64,000 nt of DNA from Pseudomonadota bacterium (GTDB taxonomy: Bacteria > Pseudomonadota > Gammaproteobacteria > Burkholderiales > SG8-39): contig CANGMI010000007.1 in assembly GCA_947455195.1 (NCBI GenBank), forward strand, positions 212,875-276,874, in the 5' to 3' direction. Made by a program: the position numbers and the translations under genes. Below the pieces are notes generated by a model, which saw only the letters and a program-made list of their open reading frames with translations, was not told the origin of the DNA and searched no databases. Shown one piece after another: positions 18,935 through 28,225 of this stretch (positions are counted from its first letter, which is position 1; each line of letters opens with the position of its first letter).

Positions 18935-20233
18935 ATGGCGGCTGCCGACAAGATCGTCACCACGACCGGCCTTCTGGGCTGGGTCGATGAACGCTTTCCG
19001 CTCACCAAGCTGTTCCGTGAGCACATGTCCGAGTACTACGCGCCGAAGAACTTCAACTTCTTCTACTTCTTCGGTGCGCTCTCCCTGCTGGTGCTGGTCA
19101 ATCAGATTCTCACCGGCATCTTTCTCACGATGCATTACAAGCCCGATGCCGCTTCGGCGTTTGCGTCGGTCGAGTACATCATGCGGGAAGTCAACTTCGG
19201 CTGGCTGATCCGCTACATGCACTCCACGGGCGCTTCCGCGTTCTTCATCGTGGTCTATCTGCACATGTTCCGGGGTCTCATCTACGGCAGCTACCGCAAG
19301 CCGCGAGAACTCATCTGGATTTTCGGGGTCATCATTTTCCTGATGCTGATGGGCGAGGCCTTCTTCGGCTACCTGCTCCCCTGGGGTCAGATGTCGTTCT
19401 GGGGTGCCCAGGTCATCGTGAACCTCTTTGGTGCGGTGCCGTTCATCGGGCCTGATCTGTCGGTCTGGATTCGTGGCGACTTCGTGGTGTCCGATGCGAC
19501 CCTCAACCGTTTCTTCGCCTTCCATGTGATTGCCTTGCCTCTGGCCATCTGCGGTCTTGTGGCAGCGCACATCATGGCGCTGCACGAAGTGGGATCGAAC
19601 AACCCCGATGGGGTCGAGATCAAGAAGACGAAGGATCCGGTCACGGGGCACCCGCTCGACGGCATTCCGTTCCACCCGTACTACACGGTGAAGGATCTGT
19701 TCGGCGTATCGGTCTTCCTGTTCGTGTTCTGCGCCATCATCTTCTTCGCACCGGAGATGGGCGGCTACTTCCTCGAGGCCAACAACTTCATTCCGGCCAA
19801 CCCGATGCAGACGCCGCCTCACATCGCGCCGGTGTGGTACTTCACGCCGTTCTATTCGATCCTGCGCGCGGTGCCGCCGGTATTCGAGTCGCAGTTCCCT
19901 GGCGTGGCGTGCATGGGATTGTCGGTGATGGCGTTCTTCCTCATGCCATGGCTGGATCGTGGCGCGGTGAGGTCGATCCGCTATCGCGGGGCGCACTTCA
20001 AGACATGGCTGGCCCTCTTCGTCGCGAGCCTGTTCATCCTCGGTTACCTGGGGACCCAGCCGACCGACGTCTGGGGACGCTTCGGCGAGGGTGTGCCCCT
20101 CGTCGGCGGCTCCGAGCGGGCTACCTGGGGTGCGCGCCTGTTCTCGCTCGTCTACTTCCTCTACTTCATTCTCATGCCGTGGTACACGCGCTGGGACAAG
20201 ACCAAACCTGAACCGACCCGGGTGACGGGATGA
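18935..20233 (+). CDS. petB: Cytochrome b
   Basis: Typical bc1 cytochrome b (NFNFFYFFGALSLLVLVNQILTGIFLTMHY, WLIRYMHSTGASAFF, PEWYFTPFY-type motif VWYFTPFYSILR). Confidence 0.95.
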   Translation: MAAADKIVTTTGLLGWVDERFPLTKLFREHMSEYYAPKNFNFFYFFGALSLLVLVNQILTGIFLTMHYKPDAASAFASVEYIMREVNFGWLIRYMHSTGASAFFIVVYLHMFRGLIYGSYRKPRELIWIFGVIIFLMLMGEAFFGYLLPWGQMSFWGAQVIVNLFGAVPFIGPDLSVWIRGDFVVSDATLNRFFAFHVIALPLAICGLVAAHIMALHEVGSNNPDGVEIKKTKDPVTGHPLDGIPFHPYYTVKDLFGVSVFLFVFCAIIFFAPEMGGYFLEANNFIPANPMQTPPHIAPVWYFTPFYSILRAVPPVFESQFPGVACMGLSVMAFFLMPWLDRGAVRSIRYRGAHFKTWLALFVASLFILGYLGTQPTDVWGRFGEGVPLVGGSERATWGARLFSLVYFLYFILMPWYTRWDKTKPEPTRVTG

Positions 20234-20982
20234 GGCTCGCCATGAAATCTGTCATCACTGTCCTGGCGGCGCTCGCCACGAGTCTTGCCTTCTCGATGTC
20301 GGCCCGGGCGCACGGGGAGGCGCAACTCGACCATGCACCGATCAACCCGACCGACGCAGCCAGCCTCCAGGCGGGGGCTCGCACCTTCGTCAACAATTGC
20401 CTGAACTGCCATAGCGCAAGTCTTGTCCGCTACAACCAGTTGAAGGGCATCGGCCTGACCGAAGCGCAGATCAAGGAGAACCTGCTCTTCACCGGTGAGA
20501 AGGTCGGCGACATGATGAAGGTGGCAGCGTCCGCGCGCGATCAGCGCGAATGGTTCGGCAACGCGCCGCCCGATCTGTCGGTCGAGGCCCGGGTGCGGGG
20601 TGTCGACTGGCTCTACACCTATCTGCGTCGCTTCTATCGCGACCCCTCGACCGCCACCGGGTGGAACAACACGGTCTTTCCGAACGTGGCGATGCCGCAC
20701 GTGCTCTGGAATCTGCAGGGCATGTCCCAGGCCCGCGTCGAGGTGGAGCACGGCGAGGGGCACGAGATGAAGACCATTGTCATCGAACCTCCGACAGGTG
20801 GGTCGATGACCACGGCCGAGTACGACCGCACGATCGCCGATCTGGTGAATTTCATGGGTTGGATGGCCGAGCCGCATGCGATCGAGCGGCGCAACCTCGG
20901 GTTCCTGGTCCTGATCGCACTCTCGATTCTGATCCTGCTCACCTACCTGCTCAAGGCAGCCTACTGGAAGGACGTTCACTGA
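20230..20982 (+). CDS. petC: Cytochrome c1
   Basis: Signal peptide, haem-binding CLNCH, NAPPDLS and a C-terminal TM anchor. ATGA overlap with petB. Confidence 0.85.
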   Translation: MRLAMKSVITVLAALATSLAFSMSARAHGEAQLDHAPINPTDAASLQAGARTFVNNCLNCHSASLVRYNQLKGIGLTEAQIKENLLFTGEKVGDMMKVAASARDQREWFGNAPPDLSVEARVRGVDWLYTYLRRFYRDPSTATGWNNTVFPNVAMPHVLWNLQGMSQARVEVEHGEGHEMKTIVIEPPTGGSMTTAEYDRTIADLVNFMGWMAEPHAIERRNLGFLVLIALSILILLTYLLKAAYWKDVH

Positions 20983-21114
20983 TCGAAACCGAGCGGGCTG
21001 CCCGGGGTGCTCTCCATCCTGGCAGCGTACTCGGGCAGGGCGCCGGCGTCTGATGCGCCTGTGGGTCCCTGATAGTCGTATTCCCAGCCTGTCGATGTCA
21101 CGAGGTAGAACGTC

Positions 21115-21714
21115 ATGATGAATCTTTACTCCGGAACCACCTGTCCCTTCAGTCAGCGCTGCCGCATCGTGCTCTACGAGAAGGGCATGGACTTCCAGAT
21201 CATCGATGTCGACATGTATAACAAGCCCGAAGACATCGCGGCGATGAATCCGTACAACCGTCTGCCGGTACTGGTCGAGCGTGATCTGATCCTGTACGAG
21301 TCCAACATCATCAACGAATACATCGACGAGCGCTTCCCGCATCCGCAGTTGATGCCGCCCGATCCGGTGCAGCGTGCTCGCGCGCGACTCTTCCTCTTCA
21401 ACTTCGAGGTCGAACTGTTCTCGCAGATCGAACCGATCGAGACCGGCAACCCCAAGCAGCAGGAGCGTGCGCGCCAACTGCTGCACGAGCGGCTGACCCA
21501 GTTGTCGCCGGTCTTCGCCCGCCAGAAGTTCCTGCTTGGCGAAGAATTCTCGATGCTCGACGTCGCATTGAGTCCGCTGCTTTGGCGCCTTGACCACTAC
21601 GGCATCCAGTTGCCCAAGCAGGCCGCGCCACTCATGAAGTACGCCGAGCGCATCTTCAGTCGTCCCGCCTTCATCGATGCGCTCACGCCCTCGGAAAAGG
21701 TGATGCGCCGCTAG
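21115..21714 (+). CDS. sspA: Stringent starvation protein A (GST-like)
   Basis: MMNLYSGTTCPFSQRCRIVLYEKGMDFQIIDVD, highly SspA-like and followed by sspB. Confidence 0.9.
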   Translation: MMNLYSGTTCPFSQRCRIVLYEKGMDFQIIDVDMYNKPEDIAAMNPYNRLPVLVERDLILYESNIINEYIDERFPHPQLMPPDPVQRARARLFLFNFEVELFSQIEPIETGNPKQQERARQLLHERLTQLSPVFARQKFLLGEEFSMLDVALSPLLWRLDHYGIQLPKQAAPLMKYAERIFSRPAFIDALTPSEKVMRR

Positions 21715-21735
21715 GCTGCTGGCGCGGCGAGGAGC

Positions 21736-22233
21736 ATGATCGTGAGCGAGCCCACCAGCCAGAAGCCATACCTGCTGCGCGCCCTCTACGAGTGGTGCGT
21801 CGACAATGGGTTCACGCCGTATCTTGCAGTACACGTCGATGCCGCCACGCGCGTGCCCATGGAGTTCGTGCGCAAGGGTGAGATCGTGCTCAACATCGGC
21901 CCGCTCGCTTCCAACGGGCTTCGGATGGGTAACGAGATGATCGAATTCGCAGCCCGCTTTGGCGGTGTGAGTCGCGACATCTTCGTGCCGGTGACGGCGG
22001 TGCAGGCGATCTACGCACGTGAGAATGGTCAGGGCATGACCTTTGATCCCGAGCCACCGACGATGGGTGATCTCGCCAAGGCGAGTCCGTTGCTGACGCC
22101 CGCCGAGAGCTCGGCGAGCGTGCTGCATGCTGTACCGACGGCCGCTGCGCGTGTCGATGATCCGCCTGCTGATCCACCGCGCCCGCCGGCGGGGCCGGCT
22201 GGGGCACGGCCTGCGCTGCGGCGAATCAAGTAG
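21736..22233 (+). CDS. sspB: ClpXP adaptor stringent starvation protein B
   Basis: KPYLLRALYEWCVDNGFTPYLAV, a disordered tail and a C-terminal ClpX-binding-like LRRIK. Confidence 0.85.
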   Translation: MIVSEPTSQKPYLLRALYEWCVDNGFTPYLAVHVDAATRVPMEFVRKGEIVLNIGPLASNGLRMGNEMIEFAARFGGVSRDIFVPVTAVQAIYARENGQGMTFDPEPPTMGDLAKASPLLTPAESSASVLHAVPTAAARVDDPPADPPRPPAGPAGARPALRRIK

Positions 22234-22306
22234 CGTCCGACGACCGCTCGGGCCACAGACTATAATCAGCGCCGTTGCAGATTCACGCAGCGCCTGAAGC
22301 ATCCCA

Positions 22307-22381
22307 GCCGCTTTAGCTCAGTGGTAGAGCAACCGCCTTGTAAGCGGTAGGTCGTCCGTTCAATCCGGACAAGCGGCACCA
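22307..22381 (+). tRNA. tRNA-Thr (anticodon TGT)
   Basis: Hand-folded cloverleaf. Acceptor GCCGCTT/AAGCGGC, D arm GCTC..GAGC, anticodon stem ACCGC/GCGGT with loop CTTGTAA (TGT at 22339-22341), T arm GTCCG-TTCAATC-CGGAC, and encoded CCA. A TATAAT lies at 22261-22266 upstream. Confidence 0.9.
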
Positions 22382-22659
22382 GAACACCTGTCTGATGGAG
22401 GGGTTCGTGACCGGGGGGTGGTCATGCTCCTGTCATTTTTGAGGGATACCCGTTGAGACTGGGGGGGGTGTGTCCTGCGTGTGCAGAATACGTTCCTGAA
22501 ACGCGCTGCACCCACGCTGAATCACGCGAATGAAGCTGCATGCAAATTGAATTCAAGTGCATCCCATCCGCGCTTGCACCGAGTGTGCTCGAAGGGTTCA
22601 TGAATCCCGGGGACGTCGTCGCGATCGGGCTCCGCCCCGGTGGGTATTGAGTACCTTTG

Positions 22660-25600
22660 ATGAGAATCCGACAGCTATGCGCAAGGCTCGGTGACGGGCT
22701 CGCCGCCCGTTTGAAAGGCCTGCTGCCCACGCGCCGTGGGGTGCCCGGCGCCACAGGGGTGCGGGCAAAGCGGCCACGTTGGATCCTCCCGAGTGTTGCG
22801 GCTGTCTTCCTGGCAGTGGTGGCCTGGGTGATCGTGTGGTCAGCGGGCATCCCGATCGCGGGTATGGGGCCTGCGAACGAGGCGGGTGAAGCAACGCTCG
22901 AAGAGCCCCTCGATGTGGTCCTTGTTGCCGACTTTTCCGGCAACGACAAGCTCGTCGGACTTGATCTCGAACGTGGGTTTGCAGATGCGCTTGCCAGGCA
23001 TGGCAGCAGCCAGCGCTTGCGCATCGTGAGGCGCGATGACGAAGGCAAGCCCGAAGCCACGCTGGCGCTGGCAGAGGGGGCTGCATCCGGATTTCGCACC
23101 CTGGCTATCGTAGGCCCGGGGCAGACCCGTGGCTATGCAGCGTTTGCGCAGCAGGCTGAAGAGGGCGGGGTGCCCGTGCTCGTGCCCGTGGCGCCTCCTG
23201 GCCCATCCAGTGCGGGCAAATGGGTCTACACGCTTCAGCCCAGCCAGCAGTTGCAGGCCGAGTTGGCCGCCAGAATGCTCGCCCAGATCAGGCCTGCTGC
23301 CCGGGTAAGCATGGTGACCCTGGCCGCCTCGGGGGCAGGCTACTGGAACGGAATCCGGAACGCCTTTGTCGGCAGGAGCGCGACGTTGCGCGAGATTGAC
23401 CCCGGCAGTTCGCCTGCGATGGTGGAGGCAATGGCCGAGTCGCTCTCCACCAGTGACATGACCTTTGTCGACCTGCCTTCGGTGCTCGCCGCGGCGCTCG
23501 TAAAAGGGTTGCGCGATTCAGGCTACAAGGGGCGCATCGTAGGCTTCGGCGACATGGCGCTGACCGGCTTTGGCGAACGTTTCAGGGGCCTGCCCAAGGA
23601 GCGCCTCTCGCCCGGTTACTACACCCAGGGCGTCCTGACGATCACGACCTTCTCTCCGGACGAAGTGGATGAACGGAGTCGCGGGCTGGTCGATGCCCAC
23701 CACGCCCGATATGGCGCTGATCCTTCGTGGGCATATGCCTATGGCTATGACGTCGGGACGATGCTCACGGACTTTGTGGCAATCAAGGATTCGCAGGCGA
23801 ATCCTGCCAGTGGGAGCACAGGCGTTGCAACGGGCCAGTCCGACCGGGCGACCCAGAAGGTGGATCCGGATGAGTGGCGGGAATCCCTGCGCGAGTACAT
23901 GGCGGCGCTCACTGTGGCGGCTCGGCCGACCTCGGGCTTTACCGGTCTGATTGCGTTCGACGAGACGCGCCAGCGCGACACGCAGCCTTCCGTACTCACC
24001 TACAGTGACGGGCGAGCGGTTCCCTACGACCGGCAATTCAGCCATCAGCCGGCGCGCGTCGACGCAAGAGCAGACGACAGAGTCCGGGAAGTGGAAGTGG
24101 CGGGGCGCTTTTATGACGTCGTTCCGATCGCGTTCTCGGGTATTCGTTTTCATTCGATCGGTTCGATCGACATCGATGACGGCAATTACACCGCCGACTT
24201 CGAATTGTGGTTTCGCTCACCGATTCGCATCGAGCCTGAAGACGTGTTTTTTTCGAACGCTGTCGATGGAAGCATCAAGGGTATCGTCGTGGAGTCGCTC
24301 AAGGACGATGAGCGCTTCTATCAGCGACTCAGATTCCAGGGGAAGTTCCGCTTTGACGCTTCGCCCAAGGACTTGCTGCTCGAGCGGATCACATTGCCTC
24401 TTTCGTGGCGCCACAAGCAACTCGAAGTGGGTGGGTTGCGCCTCGTGATTGATTCGGCCAGCTTTGCATCGGTGACCGGGAGCGCCGCCATCCATGAGCA
24501 GATCGCCAGCGAACGTGTCATGGCGGCCGCCACTGGCTTTCGAGCGGTAACCTCGGTGCTCGGCGTCGAGAGCCGGCCCGTGAGGGCGCTGGGTGATCCG
24601 CGAGCCCGAGCCGGACAGTTGATCTACTCCGAAACGACCATGAAAGTGGTGGTCGAATCGACAACGTCATCGCTGGGGCCGGCTCTTGCCCGACGCGTGC
24701 CTGCGCTTCTGGCCTTGGCGGCCTCACTGGTGCTTCTTGCAACGGGCTTCACGCTGCGTCGCCGCCGGCAGGGCAGTCCCGTCGCTCGCGTGCTGACCAT
24801 CCTGTCGTTCATTGGCGCGTTGCTCCTTGGCGAAGTGGCGCTCTTTGGCAGTTCGCTCCTCGTGAATTCACCTCAGCGGTGGGTGGTCTGGATCCGATAC
24901 GGGATCACGATCGGCTACTACATGGCGGCCGCGTTCATGATCAACGCGCTGATATGGGGTTTGTTGCGTCGCAGTCGCGGCGGGTTGATGGTTCAGGGGA
25001 CGATTCATCTCTTGACGTCGTCTGCGGTGTACGCGTGCATGTTTGCCGCCTATTACACCAATGTGCTGGGGCGCGATGTCTTGCCGATACTGGCGACCTC
25101 GTCCGTTCTGCTCACGGTGATCGGCCTTGCGTTGCGCGAACTCATCCTGGATGCCATCAGTGGTGTCGCCCTTCACGTCGAAGGGTCAGTCAAGGTGGGT
25201 CAGTGGATTTCGGTAATGAATGGTGGCGCCACCCTGAATGGCATTGTCGAGGAACTGGGCTGGCGGACGTTCAGGATTCGTTCGCGTGACGACGAGGTTC
25301 ACTTCGTCCCGAATGCATCAATCGTCCAGCACGTGATGAGCAATCTTTCACTCAGCAATGGGTTTACCCGTGTCGAGATTCCGTTCGAGATCAGTTCAGG
25401 TGCGGAGGTGGGGCTGGTTCTGGATACGCTTGCTCGCGCGGTGCGCGATTTGCTTTCCGGTGACCCGGACGTCGATCCGGCGCGGCCGGTTCAACTGGTA
25501 TGTCGCGAGATCGACGGCGAAGGCACGGAAATGGCAGTGCAGGTGTTCTTCCGTGCCGGGCGGTCCGTGGACAGTCTCTCGACGCGAATTTTGCAGACGG

Positions 25601-25695
25601 TCAGTTCAGTCCTTATCAGGCTCGATGCCTTGCCGACGAGAAGAATCAGCCTCGACCGACCCGAGAAAATGAACGCGCTCGGTGTGTCAGCCTGA
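22660..25695 (+). CDS. Large membrane protein: N-terminal TM anchor, type-I periplasmic binding protein domain, beta-rich periplasmic module, and C-terminal MscS-type mechanosensitive channel domain
   Basis: PBP1/LivK-like region at about aa 85-470. MscS pore helix plus beta-domain (VIGLALRELILDAISGVALHVEGSVKVGQWISV...GIVEELGWRTFRIRSRDDEVHFVPNASI) and a C-terminal alpha/beta domain. About 5 TM helices at aa 686-850. ATG at 22660; an in-frame TTG lies at 22657. Confidence 0.8.
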   Translation: MRIRQLCARLGDGLAARLKGLLPTRRGVPGATGVRAKRPRWILPSVAAVFLAVVAWVIVWSAGIPIAGMGPANEAGEATLEEPLDVVLVADFSGNDKLVGLDLERGFADALARHGSSQRLRIVRRDDEGKPEATLALAEGAASGFRTLAIVGPGQTRGYAAFAQQAEEGGVPVLVPVAPPGPSSAGKWVYTLQPSQQLQAELAARMLAQIRPAARVSMVTLAASGAGYWNGIRNAFVGRSATLREIDPGSSPAMVEAMAESLSTSDMTFVDLPSVLAAALVKGLRDSGYKGRIVGFGDMALTGFGERFRGLPKERLSPGYYTQGVLTITTFSPDEVDERSRGLVDAHHARYGADPSWAYAYGYDVGTMLTDFVAIKDSQANPASGSTGVATGQSDRATQKVDPDEWRESLREYMAALTVAARPTSGFTGLIAFDETRQRDTQPSVLTYSDGRAVPYDRQFSHQPARVDARADDRVREVEVAGRFYDVVPIAFSGIRFHSIGSIDIDDGNYTADFELWFRSPIRIEPEDVFFSNAVDGSIKGIVVESLKDDERFYQRLRFQGKFRFDASPKDLLLERITLPLSWRHKQLEVGGLRLVIDSASFASVTGSAAIHEQIASERVMAAATGFRAVTSVLGVESRPVRALGDPRARAGQLIYSETTMKVVVESTTSSLGPALARRVPALLALAASLVLLATGFTLRRRRQGSPVARVLTILSFIGALLLGEVALFGSSLLVNSPQRWVVWIRYGITIGYYMAAAFMINALIWGLLRRSRGGLMVQGTIHLLTSSAVYACMFAAYYTNVLGRDVLPILATSSVLLTVIGLALRELILDAISGVALHVEGSVKVGQWISVMNGGATLNGIVEELGWRTFRIRSRDDEVHFVPNASIVQHVMSNLSLSNGFTRVEIPFEISSGAEVGLVLDTLARAVRDLLSGDPDVDPARPVQLVCREIDGEGTEMAVQVFFRAGRSVDSLSTRILQTVSSVLIRLDALPTRRISLDRPEKMNALGVSA

Positions 25696-26100
25696 ATGTC
25701 TCGAACGGCACTCGGTTCTCAAGCTTGCCCCTGCGGGCTGTCGAGGCGACTTGCCGACTGCTGTGGCCGATGGCATGCCGGCGAACAGTACCTGCTCGCG
25801 CCGAACGCCGAAGCCTTGATGCGATCGCGTTACACGGCCTATGTGCTCGGACTCGATGCTTACCTGGTGGATACCTGGCACCCGCTGACCCGACCTGGAC
25901 TCATCGAGCCACGCCCGGCTTCCTTGCGCTGGCTCGGGCTCGAGGTGCGGCGTCATGTCGAACATGATGCCGAGCACGCAACGGTCGAATTTGTCGCGCG
26001 CAGCAAGCTTGCGGGCCGTGCTCAGCGTCTGCACGAGGTGAGTCGCTTCGAGCGACGTGAGGGGCGCTGGCTCTACGTCGATGGCCAATCGGACGTGTGA
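25696..26100 (+). CDS. ychJ: YchJ family protein (UPF0225, SEC-C motif)
   Basis: N-terminal CPCG...CCG SEC-C-like metal motif and a YchJ-like body. The ATG immediately follows the channel gene stop (TGAATG). Confidence 0.7.
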   Translation: MSRTALGSQACPCGLSRRLADCCGRWHAGEQYLLAPNAEALMRSRYTAYVLGLDAYLVDTWHPLTRPGLIEPRPASLRWLGLEVRRHVEHDAEHATVEFVARSKLAGRAQRLHEVSRFERREGRWLYVDGQSDV

Positions 26101-26135: not shown

Positions 26136-27404
26136 TCACTTGCGTGCGTTCAGTTCCTTCCAGCCGTCACGCACGTTGGGGATCGTCTCGATCTCGACAT
26201 TCATCAGCTTGCCCCCTACACGGCGCACTTCGCGGATGTATTCGTTGTGGACCACATCCCGCGTCTCGGGGTCGATTGCCACCGGCCCACGCGGGCTGTT
26301 CGGGTTGCTGTATCGGCTGAGGATGGCCATCGTGCGATCGGGGTCGATGCGCCCCTGCTGTTCCCGGATGGCGGTGTAGATCGCATCCATCGCATCCCAC
26401 GCGGCCAGCGACATGAGTGTCGGGACGACTGCTTCGCCGTACTCCCGTGCGAAGGCTGTCGTAAAGGCCTTGTTGGCGGGGCGATCGCCGCCTGGTGAAT
26501 AGTGGTAAGCGGTCACCACCCCGAGTGCGGCGTCGCCCATATTGACCAGTTCTTCGTCGGCCGTGATGTTGCCCGAGCCAATGAATCGGATGCCGGCACG
26601 CTCGAGGCCAAGCGCCGCGTAGGCTTTCATCAGCTGCGCCGCGGGTGGGCCCGACGGAACGAAGGCGAAGAGGACGTCGGGCTTTTCGTCCTTGACCCGT
26701 TGCAGAAACGGAATGAAATCCGGGTTGGCGAGGGGTACACGCACTTTGCCGATGATTTGCCCGCCCCCTTCGGCGAAGCCCTTGGCAAACGCTTCTTCCG
26801 AGTCGTGGCCGGCGGCAAAATCGCTCACCAGCTGATAGGCGCGGGTGTACTTTCGGGATGCCCAGCGCCCGAGCGGCAGGGCGTGCTGCCATTCGGTGAA
26901 TGACAGTCGGACGATGTAGGGCGAACGCAGCGGAATCACCGAGGCGGCGGCATTCATGATCACCATCGGCACCTTCGCTTCGGTGACCAGCGGCGCGATG
27001 GCCAGTGCATTGGGGCTCCACACGATGCCGGTCAGAATCTGCACCTTGTCGCGAACGATGAGTTCCTGCGCGATGGCACGGGCCTTGTCTGGCACGGGGC
27101 CACCGTCGTCACGAACCACGACGTCAACCTTGACACCCGGCGGCAGTTTGTCGGCATTGAGCTTCATGTAGAGCTTCATGCCGCGATCCATTTCGGTGCC
27201 GAAGGCTGCATTGGTCCCGCTGTAGGTGGCGAGCATGCCGATGCGAACGGTCTGGGCGCTCGCGATCGGGCTGAATGACACAGCCAGGAGTACGGCTCCT
27301 GCTGCGACCAGACTTGCCGATCTCGGGGTGGTCAGCATGTTCGTGGCGGTGCGAACGGCCGAGACGGCGCTTCGCAGCATTCCCTGCCTTGTCATCCGAT
27401 GCAT
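26136..27404 (-). CDS. ABC transporter substrate-binding protein, LivK/branched-chain amino-acid family (orphan, no permease or ATPase nearby)
   Basis: Signal peptide (LVAAGAVLLAVSFSPIASA) followed by a Peripla_BP_6-like sequence. Start at MHRM (27404) is supported by a GAGGAG SD 6 nt upstream. The ORF-track start at 27467 would run through the 33-nt palindrome. Confidence 0.8.
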   Translation of the reverse strand: MHRMTRQGMLRSAVSAVRTATNMLTTPRSASLVAAGAVLLAVSFSPIASAQTVRIGMLATYSGTNAAFGTEMDRGMKLYMKLNADKLPPGVKVDVVVRDDGGPVPDKARAIAQELIVRDKVQILTGIVWSPNALAIAPLVTEAKVPMVIMNAAASVIPLRSPYIVRLSFTEWQHALPLGRWASRKYTRAYQLVSDFAAGHDSEEAFAKGFAEGGGQIIGKVRVPLANPDFIPFLQRVKDEKPDVLFAFVPSGPPAAQLMKAYAALGLERAGIRFIGSGNITADEELVNMGDAALGVVTAYHYSPGGDRPANKAFTTAFAREYGEAVVPTLMSLAAWDAMDAIYTAIREQQGRIDPDRTMAILSRYSNPNSPRGPVAIDPETRDVVHNEYIREVRRVGGKLMNVEIETIPNVRDGWKELNARK

Positions 27405-27429
27405 CACTGTCTCCTCGGTGTTTGCCCAC

Positions 27430-27462
27430 GGGGTCAGGTCTTGCCACGCAAGACCTGACCCC
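27430..27462. repeat. Perfect 15-bp inverted repeat with a 3-nt spacer (GGGGTCAGGTCTTGC-cac-GCAAGACCTGACCCC)
   Basis: Read directly from the sequence. It lies in the divergent intergenic region between the binding-protein gene and the hydrolase gene. TTTTT at 27469-27473 and CATAAT at 27479-27484 follow. Confidence 0.9.
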
Positions 27463-27523
27463 ATCAAGTTTTTGCAGCCATAATATCCCTGCCGAAAGAA
27501 ATCGCGCCAGAGGGAGACAGCCG

Positions 27524-28225
27524 ATGCACGTCATCGATATTCCGCAGTCGGTCATCGACCGGGTCATTCGGCATCGTGGCCGCGAGCACGTTTATGACGA
27601 TCTCGAAGCACGGCATACGGCGCTGATCGTGGTCGACATGCAGAACGCCTTCATGATGCCGGGCGTGGCCCACGTGCTTTGCGACACCGCGCGCGACATC
27701 GTGCCCGCCATCAACCGTCTGGCCAGTGCCACGCGCGCCTGTGGTGGCACGGTGGTGTGGGTCAAGAACACCTTTGGCGAGCCCTCGCTCAAGAGCTGGC
27801 CGGTCTTTCATGCGATGACCGGCCCCGAGCGGACCCGGGTACGCATCCAGACCATGGCCGAGGGAGCTATCGGCCACGCACTCTGGGCCGGGCTCGAGGT
27901 GAACGAGCGGACCGATCTCATCGTCCAGAAAGATCGCTACAGTGCCTTCGTGCCGGGCGCATCACCACTCGCCGAGATGTTGCGCGCGAGAGGTCTGGAT
28001 ACCTTGCTCATCACCGGCACCGTCACAAACGTGTGCTGCGACTCCACGGCGCGCGACGCGATGATGCAGAACTTTCGTACGGTGATGATCACCGATGCGA
28101 ACGCGGCGCATACCGACGAGGAGCACAACGCAGCGCTCGTTGCGTTCTATCTGGCCTTTGGCGACATCATGTCGACCGACCTCGCGATCGAGTGTCTCGA
28201 GCGCTCGGCCAGCAAGGCCAGCTGA
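27524..28225 (+). CDS. Isochorismatase-family cysteine hydrolase
   Basis: Catalytic triad contexts ALIVVDMQNAF (Asp), QKDRYSAF (Lys) and GTVTNVCCDSTARDA (Cys). GGGAGA SD 6 nt upstream of ATG 27524. Confidence 0.8.
   Translation: MHVIDIPQSVIDRVIRHRGREHVYDDLEARHTALIVVDMQNAFMMPGVAHVLCDTARDIVPAINRLASATRACGGTVVWVKNTFGEPSLKSWPVFHAMTGPERTRVRIQTMAEGAIGHALWAGLEVNERTDLIVQKDRYSAFVPGASPLAEMLRARGLDTLLITGTVTNVCCDSTARDAMMQNFRTVMITDANAAHTDEEHNAALVAFYLAFGDIMSTDLAIECLERSASKAS

Follow-up and report, generated by a model that had tools for sequence, protein, structure and literature searches.

A predicted chimera of a periplasmic binding protein, a pLGIC-family extracellular domain and an MscS-type channel in a Pseudomonadota bacterium

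Described channels built from related parts

Pentameric ion channels gated by ligands (pLGICs) and MscS channels have both been studied heavily and are treated as separate, the former as pentameric and ligand-gated, the latter as heptameric and tension-gated. Among large MscS-family proteins, MscK, MscM and YbiO possess a big periplasmic N-terminal region. Large paralogues of the MscK/MscM type with such domains are tension-gated, and MscK is modulated by external ions. The bCNG channels (2010, as cited in PMC13591265), which the literature accessible to us defines by their C-terminal domain, have an MscS-type pore and cage and a cNMP-binding domain. That literature, which covers work other than the original bCNG papers, reports no structure of a bCNG channel, and in it we met no periplasmic domain of pLGIC-like type in these proteins.

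Prokaryotic pLGICs fused to a type I periplasmic binding protein (PBP-I) were described by Tasneem, Iyer, Jakobsson & Aravind (2005, PMC549065). They are uncharacterised; DeCLIC is the sole pLGIC in which an N-terminal domain has been studied, a domain that belongs to a different type (PMC12664993). In ionotropic glutamate receptors, PBP-type sensors are likewise grafted onto the pore of an unrelated channel family (PMC549065).

Here we analysed a stretch of 64,000 nucleotides (the window) from a metagenome-assembled genome of a Pseudomonadota bacterium. One gene in it encodes a membrane anchor at the N-terminus, then a type I PBP, a beta-rich module of ~195 aa, five transmembrane (TM) helices, and finally a complete MscS pore with its cytoplasmic cage (Table 1). 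The four-part build had been proposed in a first-pass annotation from the letters alone, and it was recovered in hydropathy, Pfam, AlphaFold, Foldseek and hhalign analyses. No description of a pLGIC extracellular domain (ECD) on an MscS channel was found in the full-text literature that we searched, the original bCNG papers lying outside that search.

Table 1. Positions of the gene, its parts and its neighbours in the window
Feature	Position	Strand	Basis or remark
tRNA-Thr(TGT)	22307..22381	+	upstream neighbour, outside the system
Terminator-like hairpin with T-run, 3' of the tRNA	22414..22431	+	spacer analysis
Whole gene	22660..25695	+	ORF listing, homologue alignment
N-terminal hydrophobic helix, aa 41-63	22780..22848	+	hydropathy; AlphaFold helix 42-61
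Type I PBP (Venus-flytrap), LivJ/LivK-like Peripla_BP_6, aa ~85-455	22912..24024	+	Pfam PF13458, PDB matches
pLGIC-type ECD, beta-sandwich, aa ~477-670	24088..24669	+	AlphaFold, Foldseek, hhalign, conservation
Cys/Pro-loop equivalent, aa 567-585, ASPKDLLLERITLPLSWRH; YPFD signature absent	24358..24414	+	column profiles
Loop C equivalent (beta9-beta10 hairpin tip), LGDPRARAGQ, aa 644-653	24589..24618	+	conservation, model, column profiles
Two extra TM helices, aa 672-702 and 707-730	24673..24849	+	hydropathy, AlphaFold, hhalign
MscS TM1 (739-771), TM2 (777-801), pore helix TM3 (809-833, with GLAL)	24874..25158	+	hhalign; PDB matches
MscS cage: beta-domain (aa 828-897), alpha/beta domain (to ~993)	25141..25638	+	Pfam PF00924, hhalign
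ychJ	25696..26100	+	ORF listing; Pfam YchJ_M-like, E 3.6e-26

The reading frame and its surroundings

As first annotated, the gene is a single unbroken ORF, with 1011 codons from an ATG at 22660 and a TGA at 25693-25695. The start codon is uncertain: the ORF listing (22657..25695, +) gives 1012 aa if a TTG at 22657 is used, and homologues mostly start ~35-40 aa further in. Because the window comes from a metagenome-assembled genome, and because the middle module alone gives nothing in Pfam and PDB sequence searches, we considered that a PBP gene and an MscS gene might have been mis-assembled or fused by a frameshift, or that the module might be a generic beta-rich spacer resembling pLGICs by chance. 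Such an artefact is hardly credible. Three other members of the protein cluster have the same length of 1011 aa and were found on several independent contigs (7, 3 and 2); the module is followed by MscS in 124 of the 158 related proteins examined, and finished replicons of cultured Azospirillum carry the architecture. Given the same-length members and this recurrence, the ORF is not a PBP gene and an MscS gene joined in error. The module itself gave a high-confidence model, for which the Foldseek matches listed are pLGIC and acetylcholine-binding protein (AChBP) structures only, and a strong profile chain leads from it to GLIC (see below). On these grounds the artefact was rejected.

The spacer from tRNA-Thr to the ATG is 278 bp long and contains a G8 run at 22461-22468 and the palindrome TTGAATTCAA at 22547-22556, where the first-pass annotation had placed them. 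These two features are no more than chance: the window has 4 G8 runs versus 3.0 expected, a sister metagenome-assembled genome has G7 at the place of the G8, and ~0.27 perfect 10-bp palindromes are expected by chance per 278 bp (an arithmetic estimate). The terminator-like hairpin after the tRNA implies a separate promoter for the channel gene, lying within 22440-22659; a search for sigma-70-like promoters in the upstream spacer found none, and Rfam gave no family there besides the tRNA. At the other end, ychJ begins at 25696, immediately after the TGA, in keeping with the abutment reported earlier. The two genes may be co-transcribed, and their linkage is not conserved. No compositional island was seen at the locus (GC 0.60-0.65 throughout), the tRNA was the sole megablast match of the locus to plasmids, and the neighbouring genes of the window are not conserved at a second locus (L002); a third (L003) is without the tRNA. 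The spacer features and the adjacency to ychJ look incidental; the tRNA, spacer and ychJ context gave no detectable signal, is not conserved in relatives and offers no hint of function.

Domains of the predicted channel

The N-terminal helix agrees with the single TM anchor proposed at first. It is a signal anchor or else a signal peptide that is cleaved off, and it places the downstream domains in the periplasm. The PBP had been annotated as a complete domain of LivK/Peripla_BP_6 style, and the profile of this two-lobe Venus-flytrap family indeed matched at aa 86-372 (PF13458, 51 bits versus a cut-off of 31.7, E 2.3e-13), as did PDB entries 4mlc (E 1.8e-8) and 4gnr (E 7.8e-7) in a sequence search. 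In a single pairwise sequence alignment with 4gnr, the nearest LivJ-like protein of solved structure, the window protein has GPGQTR and VPVAPP where 4gnr has GPATSG and SPSAT. We take both 4gnr segments to be ligand-binding, the SPSAT region being presumably the LivJ segment that contacts the bound amino acid. Since SPSAT is replaced by VPVAPP, an amino acid is not assured as the ligand.

The beta-rich module had been likened, by a guess from motifs, to the ligand-binding domain of pLGICs, with a length of ~170 aa and an end at nt 24576. That span proved too short (Table 1); the likeness stood. Employing a 41-sequence alignment, we built an AlphaFold model of the module (pLDDT 92.6, pTM 0.84) and searched it against the PDB by Foldseek, which gave >1100 matches at E<=1e-3. 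The best 50 of these were all pLGIC ECDs (GLIC, GABA-A, GlyR) or AChBP, with probability 1.00, and the top match was the GLIC ECD 3igq (E 2.6e-9). TMq was 0.51-0.61.

Sequence profiles led to the same family in two steps. A profile of the module, run against 1.84 billion proteins, recovered PBP-I proteins (E ~1e-11 to 1e-13) with weak Neur_chan_memb matches directly after the module. By hhalign, the MscS-type profile matched the profile of these PBP-fused prokaryotic pLGIC-type proteins at a probability of 100% (E 1.7e-60), and the latter matched GLIC at 99.2% (E 2.5e-19) over ECD and TM domain (the GLIC sequence was verified). The module aligned directly with the single GLIC sequence at probabilities of 23% and 51%, which is suggestive only, so the intermediate pLGIC-type profile was needed. 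Less sensitive routes gave little. The Pfam search of the module alone returned 0 families; Neur_chan_LBD matched relatives only below threshold (2 of 41, best E 0.005); in PDB hmmsearch, a 9-sequence module profile gave a chance match only, and a 41-sequence profile gave ELIC at E 2-4, ranked under chance ARF matches. Judged from the model, the Foldseek matches and the hhalign chain, the module has the ten-strand beta-sandwich of the pLGIC family and is a true ECD of that family.

Like the PBP-I-fused pLGICs, then, the window protein joins PBP-I to a homologous ECD, and the two have in common the motifs TG in beta1, WFR in beta2 and G-x-P in loop C. In the homologue alignment, conservation along the protein is highest in the ECD; within loop C, G is kept at 99-100% and P at 91% in MscS-type and pLGIC-type relatives alike. 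The PBP-I-fused pLGICs also have weak Neur_chan_memb matches (all under the Pfam cut-off) and a YPFD Pro-loop, whereas the window protein has neither: the Y/F-P-F-D Pro-loop of the interface between ECD and TM domain is absent from it. Column profiles showed Y100/P100/F83/D100 in the pLGIC-type proteins, no consensus in MscS-type relatives and LLLE in the window protein. Loss of YPFD in the MscS-type proteins and its retention in the pLGIC-type ones are as expected if the coupling partner has changed.

About five TM helices ending in an MscS pore, beta-domain and vestibule had been annotated downstream, and hydropathy and AlphaFold located five, at aa 682-702 (given as 672-702 in Table 1), 707-730, 739-771, 777-801 and 809-833. 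The first runs straight on from beta10, at the position of pLGIC M1, and together with the second links the ECD to the MscS core. By hhalign, the last three helices and the cage correspond to residues 41-269 of E. coli MscS, that is, to its TM1-TM3, beta-domain and alpha/beta domain (99.6%, E 3.4e-24; the MscS sequence was verified). PF00924 (MS_channel_2nd) matched aa 828-897 with 49 bits versus a cut-off of 20.2 (E 6.6e-13), and PDB sequence matches to MscS and YnaI reached E 5e-9. The mark of the MscS superfamily, a conserved TM3 that lines the pore and has the beta-domain after it, is thus present; in the alignment, read by hand, L105 of E. coli MscS corresponds to Thr819 and L109 is kept as L823. 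The M1-M4 pore family Neur_chan_memb (PF02932) had no match in the window protein, and the alignment of MscS-type with pLGIC-type profiles had no confidence past the ECD, into the pLGIC TM domain. The four-helix pLGIC pore is replaced by two linker helices and a complete MscS channel. A full-length monomer model by AlphaFold, from a 10-sequence alignment, had a pLDDT of 48 and was too poor to use.

Five TM helices are also found in YnaI, but compared with E. coli MscS and YnaI only the window protein adds ~620 periplasmic residues of ligand-binding domains. A generic periplasmic domain of the MscK/YbiO type was rejected for the module: NCBIfam equivalogs of MscK, MscM and YbiO scored 26.4 versus a cut-off of 991, 14.9 versus 809 and 17.5 versus 596 bits, all over the MscS core only, with no full-length match that included their periplasmic and 11-TM regions, and Foldseek puts the module with pLGIC and AChBP structures instead. 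With ionotropic glutamate receptors the homology is confined to the PBP fold; these receptors differ in having a K-channel-like pore rather than MscS, no pLGIC ECD and another symmetry.

Among close relatives one meets the architecture rarely (9 proteins, 3 genome loci), but the family as such is not rare. A survey of its spread gave 535 clusters in the family by profile search at E<=1e-3, with PBP, ECD and MscS combined in >100 protein clusters at 50% identity. The Azospirillum replicons were found by tblastn with a more typical relative (P0033) as the query; the ECD of the window protein found nothing in plasmids by the same method. Many relatives with PBP and ECD close with cNMP_binding, alone or together with PilZ, and PF00027 is present in P0030, P0033, P0037, P0047 and P0088. 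The window protein is without a cNMP-binding domain and stops ~20 aa past the MscS cage, so it was not assigned to bCNG. In the ECD tree, the MscS-type ECDs, 102 in all, fall into a single clade above a grade of pLGIC-type ones, and a subset of bCNG-type proteins lies in this clade with the window protein. A single ancient graft that was then long retained fits this tree.

Proposed gating and its meaning

The protein is a chimera of two unrelated channel superfamilies, and we propose that it is probably an MscS-type channel gated or modulated by a periplasmic ligand. Behind the membrane anchor, the periplasmic PBP Venus-flytrap and the pLGIC-family ECD would serve as the sensor, and the subunits would assemble, presumably into a heptamer, around the MscS core. 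A small molecule caught by the PBP and/or at the ECD could change the conformation of the ECD ring, and this change would be relayed to the TM1-TM2 paddles, which govern the TM3 gate. Since YPFD is lost, any coupling between ECD and pore must run through other contacts; the candidate route is the covalent link from beta10 to the following helix, together with contacts between the base of the ECD and conserved periplasmic TM loops. An external chemical signal, rather than tension alone, would thereby open the MscS pore or shift its tension threshold, with a flux of ions or solutes as the output; in relatives bearing a cNMP-binding domain, the flux may be combined with a second-messenger signal in the cytoplasm. 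Signs of a functional sensor are the high conservation of the ECD, with G-x-P of loop C kept at 91-100% in both pore types, the loss of YPFD where the pore is MscS, the single clade of MscS-type ECDs and the persistence of the family in >100 clusters at 50% identity.

It is also conceivable, albeit rather unlikely, that the protein is a tension-gated osmotic safety valve, in which the PBP and ECD are structural or anchoring decoration or slow modulators like the periplasmic domains of MscK and MscM. The MscS core is complete, TM1-TM2 included, tension gating is known for large MscS paralogues that have big periplasmic domains (MscK and MscM were among the PDB matches), and the YPFD motif for pLGIC coupling is lost, all of which would suit a valve. 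However, passive decoration hardly explains why the ECD, and loop C above all, is the most conserved part, and the PBP and ECD both come from dedicated ligand-binding families. Moreover, bCNG-type MscS homologues, when overexpressed, did not protect E. coli from hypo-osmotic down-shock (PMC13591265, a review), which suggests non-tension roles for such channels.

We regard as quite improbable a non-conducting transmembrane receptor, with the MscS cage serving in the cytoplasm as a platform for signalling or scaffolding and an output other than ion flux. Relatives add cNMP-binding and PilZ domains, typical signalling modules, to the cage, and the plant MscS-like protein MSL10 is reported to have non-conducting signalling functions (PMC6261518). 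Nevertheless, the pore helix of the window protein keeps its GLAL core and aligns continuously with TM3 of E. coli MscS, and Pfam and NCBIfam searches gave no output enzyme or DNA-binding domain.

Under ligand gating, a conflict of symmetry is expected between pentameric pLGIC stoichiometry and a heptameric core: to our knowledge, pLGIC ECDs are pentameric and the MscS-family channels solved so far are all heptameric. It is a tentative but quite plausible suggestion that the protein represents the founder of a ligand-gated MscS family, in which a PBP-headed pLGIC ECD gates a pore of another superfamily and another symmetry. In that case, the pLGIC ECD would qualify as a portable module for gating, one that can function in a ring that is not pentameric, probably heptameric, and without the canonical coupling of Pro-loop and M2-M3, and MscS pores could open in response to chemicals on the outside of the cell. 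A widely conserved fusion of pLGIC sensor and MscS pore makes testable the autonomy of the ECD as an allosteric module, coupling of ECD and pore without the Pro-loop/M2-M3 interface, ECD rings of other than five subunits, and ligand-driven gates of the MscS type. The culturable Azospirillum homologues, WP_012976639.1 of Azospirillum sp. B510 among them, make genetics and electrophysiology feasible, and the modular build could serve engineered ligand-controlled release valves. For the N-terminal two-thirds of many proteins of the bCNG type the proposal would also supply a likely role, as it would for proteins whose only annotation is 'ABC transporter substrate-binding protein' or 'mechanosensitive channel'.

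The middle module and pentameric channel extracellular domains

The beta-rich module in the middle of the window protein is the most conserved stretch of the protein among nine close homologues. The module sequence alone matched nothing in Pfam or, by sequence, in the PDB. An AlphaFold model built with a 41-sequence alignment (pLDDT 92.6, pTM 0.84) predicted a beta-sandwich whose final strand continues directly into a helix. Employing this model in Foldseek, we obtained more than 1100 PDB matches at E<=1e-3, the best 50 of which were all extracellular domains (ECDs) from pLGICs (pentameric ligand-gated ion channels) or AChBP. GABA-A, glycine receptor and GLIC structures were among the matches listed (probability 1.00, TMq 0.51-0.61), including the GLIC ECD 3igq (E 2.6e-9).

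Module-bearing relatives were sorted by pore into MscS-type and pLGIC-type (four-helix, Neur_chan_memb-like) proteins, and their profiles were compared with each other and with GLIC (sequence identical to PDB 2xq3_A). MscS-type and pLGIC-type relatives matched with probability 100% (E 1.7e-60), and pLGIC-type relatives matched GLIC over ECD and TMD (99.2%, E 2.5e-19); MscS-type relatives aligned directly to GLIC, collinear along the entire ECD, with probability 51% (E 1.5e-4). The confident model, the Foldseek matches and the profile chain to GLIC together identify the module as a homologous pLGIC ECD, bearing out the resemblance noted in the first-pass annotation. The fold matches and the same chain rule out a generic periplasmic spacer.

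Domain layout, MscS core and classification

Features of the channel protein and its locus
Feature	Position	Evidence or remark
tRNA-Thr(TGT)	22307-22381	upstream of channel ORF
G8 run	22461-22468	spacer
Palindrome TTGAATTCAA	22547-22556	spacer
Channel ORF	22657/22660-25695 (+)	unbroken; 1011 codons from ATG
ychJ	start 25696	right behind channel TGA stop; PF17775, E 3.6e-26
N-terminal helix	aa 41-63	hydropathy and AlphaFold secondary structure
Peripla_BP_6	aa 86-372	Pfam, 51 bits (cut-off 31.7)
Middle module (ECD)	aa ~477-670	
First extra helix, between ECD and MscS TM1	aa 672/682-702	hydropathy and AlphaFold secondary structure (682-702)
Second extra helix, between ECD and MscS TM1	aa 707-730	hydropathy and AlphaFold secondary structure
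MscS TM1	aa 739-771	same; alignment to E. coli MscS
MscS TM2	aa 777-801	same; alignment to E. coli MscS
Pore helix TM3	aa 809-833	same; alignment to E. coli MscS; beta and alpha/beta cage domains next
MscS beta-domain	aa 828-897	Pfam, 49 bits (cut-off 20.2)

The layout proposed at first pass was recovered: a lone N-terminal TM anchor; a type-I periplasmic binding protein (PBP) of LivK/Peripla_BP_6 style, with PDB sequence matches to LivJ-like proteins over aa ~91-388; and five TM helices leading into the MscS pore helix, beta-domain and cytoplasmic vestibule. The module also exists but is longer than the ~170 aa assigned to it. PDB sequence matches over aa ~781-948 were to MscS and YnaI, and a 100-sequence profile from the ECD end to the C-terminus aligned to residues 41-269 of E. 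coli MscS (sequence checked against 6rld_A) with probability 99.6% (E 3.4e-24). TM3 retains the GLAL core; by hand alignment, L109 and L105 of E. coli MscS correspond to L823 and T819. Combined with the positively charged N-terminus, the helix topology makes aa ~64-670 periplasmic and the MscS cage cytoplasmic. The first extra helix occupies the position of pLGIC M1; in the MscS-type versus pLGIC-type comparison, TMD homology is unsupported past the ECD because the alignment confidence line is blank there.

By sequence, the window protein is assigned to the MscS superfamily. Membership of the pLGICs was rejected because the protein has neither the Pro-loop nor the 4-TM pore; PBP-I-fused pLGICs share its PBP-I and ECD pair but not its pore. 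Membership of the bCNG channels, which are MscS-type with a C-terminal cNMP-binding domain, was likewise rejected, because Pfam found no such domain in the window protein. We classify it as a combination, new and conserved, of two known parts, a PBP-ECD sensor and an MscS pore. Prokaryotic pLGICs with PBP-I, LBD and 4 TM were described by Tasneem et al. 2005 (PMC549065), where MscS is unmentioned, as it is in Jaiteh et al. 2016 (PMC4795631). According to a November 2025 paper (PMC12664993), the N-terminal domain has been characterised in part for no pLGIC other than DeCLIC. In a September 2026 review of MscS-like channels (PMC13591265), bCNG channels are described solely by the C-terminal cNMP domain and are noted to have no structure and to have given E. 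coli no osmotic-shock protection. A full-text literature search, with original bCNG papers and Gene3D-type structural annotations outside its scope, returned no account of an MscS channel bearing a pLGIC ECD.

Family, distribution and gene context

Searched against 1.84 billion representative proteins, the module profile matched 535 at E<=1e-3, nearly all at residues ~430-640 of 950-1250-aa proteins. Home-made HMMs sorted 158 proteins by architecture: 115 had PBP, module and MscS, nine had module and MscS, and about 18 lacked MscS and had in its place ~130-150 more residues or an additional SBP domain at the C-terminus. Long MscS-type members (Pfam on samples) end in cNMP_binding, with or without PilZ, which is the bCNG-type layout. 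Among nine non-MscS or short members scanned with Pfam, four showed weak sub-threshold Neur_chan_memb matches right behind the module (P0091, E 4.5e-5; P0122, E 2.7e-4; P0069; P0077) and one a faint Neur_chan_LBD match. Motifs of the FDFRDYPFDQQTL type and an M1-like NLLPVF segment occur in the pLGIC-type members.

P0069, P0077 and P0146 have a PBP at both ends (Pfam for the first two; P0146 was placed by length only). The order in P0069/P0077 is type I PBP, ECD, faint sub-threshold Neur_chan_memb region and C-terminal SBP_bac_1/SBP_bac_8 (type II PBP, ~300 aa), a topologically sensible layout because the pLGIC C-terminus is periplasmic. Similarity in close homologues P0008 and P0009 (775 and 827 aa) stops right after the ECD, with an early end in unrelated sequence; both appear to be versions of the channel gene that were frameshifted or mis-assembled in their metagenome contigs.

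In a rough neighbour-joining ECD tree rooted on GLIC, without bootstrap, a single clade containing all 102 MscS-type sequences lay above 12 pLGIC-type sequences that formed a grade. This single clade suggests that a PBP-ECD sensor was grafted onto an MscS channel once, cNMP domains being present or absent afterwards.

There are only nine close relatives (45-80% identity). Among 185,579 species genomes we found three loci, all in Burkholderiales-type freshwater MAGs, the window match being CAIKRR010000014 ('uncultured proteobacterium Umea2p1_bin-0937'). The wider family extends to cultured bacteria: PBP+ECD+MscS proteins are encoded on replicons of Azospirillum brasilense, A. argentinense, A. 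oryzae and A. sp. B510. WP_012976639.1 of strain B510, in which PBP, ECD (E 2.4e-15) and MscS were all confirmed by the home-made HMMs, is annotated 'ABC transporter substrate-binding protein'; source names of other relatives are equally generic. Its gene shares a 4-nt overlap with the beginning of a type I secretion set of ABC ATPase, HlyD adaptor and TolC (L006 3860-10874, plasmid pAB510b), and a gene for a large VCBS-domain protein lies divergently upstream.

The channel neighbourhood is not conserved, locus L002 having neither tRNA nor ychJ nearby. Band_7 (stomatin/SPFH) genes adjoin relatives of both pore types (L004 2200-9777, L005 2310-8887). The cNMP-type MscS relative P0030 and a Fer2 + Guanylate_cyc (nucleotide cyclase) gene are divergently oriented; pLGIC-type P0122 has an SBP_bac_5 gene on one side and Band_7 and second Peripla_BP_6 genes on the other, all on the same strand. 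The genes adjoining P0030 and P0122, Band_7 included, may be functional partners.

In the window, the single unbroken ORF, the 278-bp spacer after tRNA-Thr with its G8 run and palindrome, and the abutting ychJ are all as first annotated. The G-run and palindrome are at chance level. The sister MAG (L001, 97% identical) has G7 in place of G8 and GTG in place of TTG at 22657; the G-run difference, in non-coding DNA, reflects polymorphism in homopolymer length or a sequencing error. The spacer contains a terminator-like hairpin 3' of tRNA-Thr but neither a promoter that could be recognised nor a riboswitch or any other Rfam element; GC content is uniform. A ~40-aa arginine-rich cytoplasmic N-terminal extension (22660-22779), found in the window protein and a 99% twin, is absent from most homologues, so translation may in fact start farther downstream; GTG codons in frame were seen by eye at aa 30 and aa 36. 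Convergent with ychJ and 36 bp past it, a 443-aa ORF with a long N-terminal extension, 26136-27467 (-), encodes a stand-alone LivK-type binding protein (Peripla_BP_6, E 3.2e-66), beyond which is an isochorismatase-family gene, ~27524-28225 (+). A 713-aa ORF, 20161-22302 (-), is antisense to sspA (21115-21714) and sspB (21736-22233); given the strong Pfam matches of these two plus-strand genes, the ORF is almost certainly spurious, one of the long open frames that GC-rich DNA commonly produces.

Coupling motifs and proposed gating

Contact between the Pro-loop and the M2-M3 loop forms the core of ECD-to-pore coupling in pLGICs. In column profiles of the pLGIC-type relatives the Pro-loop signature, Y-P-F-D, is present at 100/100/83/100% and identical to that of GLIC; it is gone from the MscS-type proteins, and the window protein has LLLE at the same columns. 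Given the role of the Pro-loop, that it was lost in the MscS-fused clade alone is in keeping with a change of coupling partner. Beta1 TG, beta2 WFR and, in loop C, LG(D/N)P...(F/Y)S (G 99-100%, P 91%) survive in both pore types. Retention of loop C, together with high conservation overall, argues for a specific role that the ECD still fulfils.

The architecture had been interpreted as a channel gated or modulated by a periplasmic ligand. Observation and interpretation are both supported, the functional part being what we infer: from sequence and model, a ligand-gated or ligand-modulated channel is the somewhat probable reading. That the protein is mainly a tension-gated valve, with PBP and ECD as accessory domains on its MscS core, appears unlikely, and a non-conducting receptor more doubtful still.

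A ligand-responsive channel would assemble through the MscS core. Binding of a small molecule in the periplasm, to the PBP Venus-flytrap and/or at the ECD, would alter the ECD assembly; by way of the beta10-helix link and conserved periplasmic loops (EVALFGSSLL..PQRWVVWIR and YYTNVLGRDxLPILATSS in the close-homologue alignment), the change would reach the TM1-TM2 paddles, opening the TM3 gate or shifting the tension threshold. An amino acid as ligand is not assured, since VPVAPP stands where 4gnr has SPSAT in the sequence alignment. pLGIC ECDs are pentameric and MscS channels heptameric; the isolated GLIC ECD (3igq) reportedly crystallised as a hexamer, so rings of other sizes may be possible. 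The finding is of high interest because it joins two major channel superfamilies, pLGIC and MscS, and is experimentally tractable.
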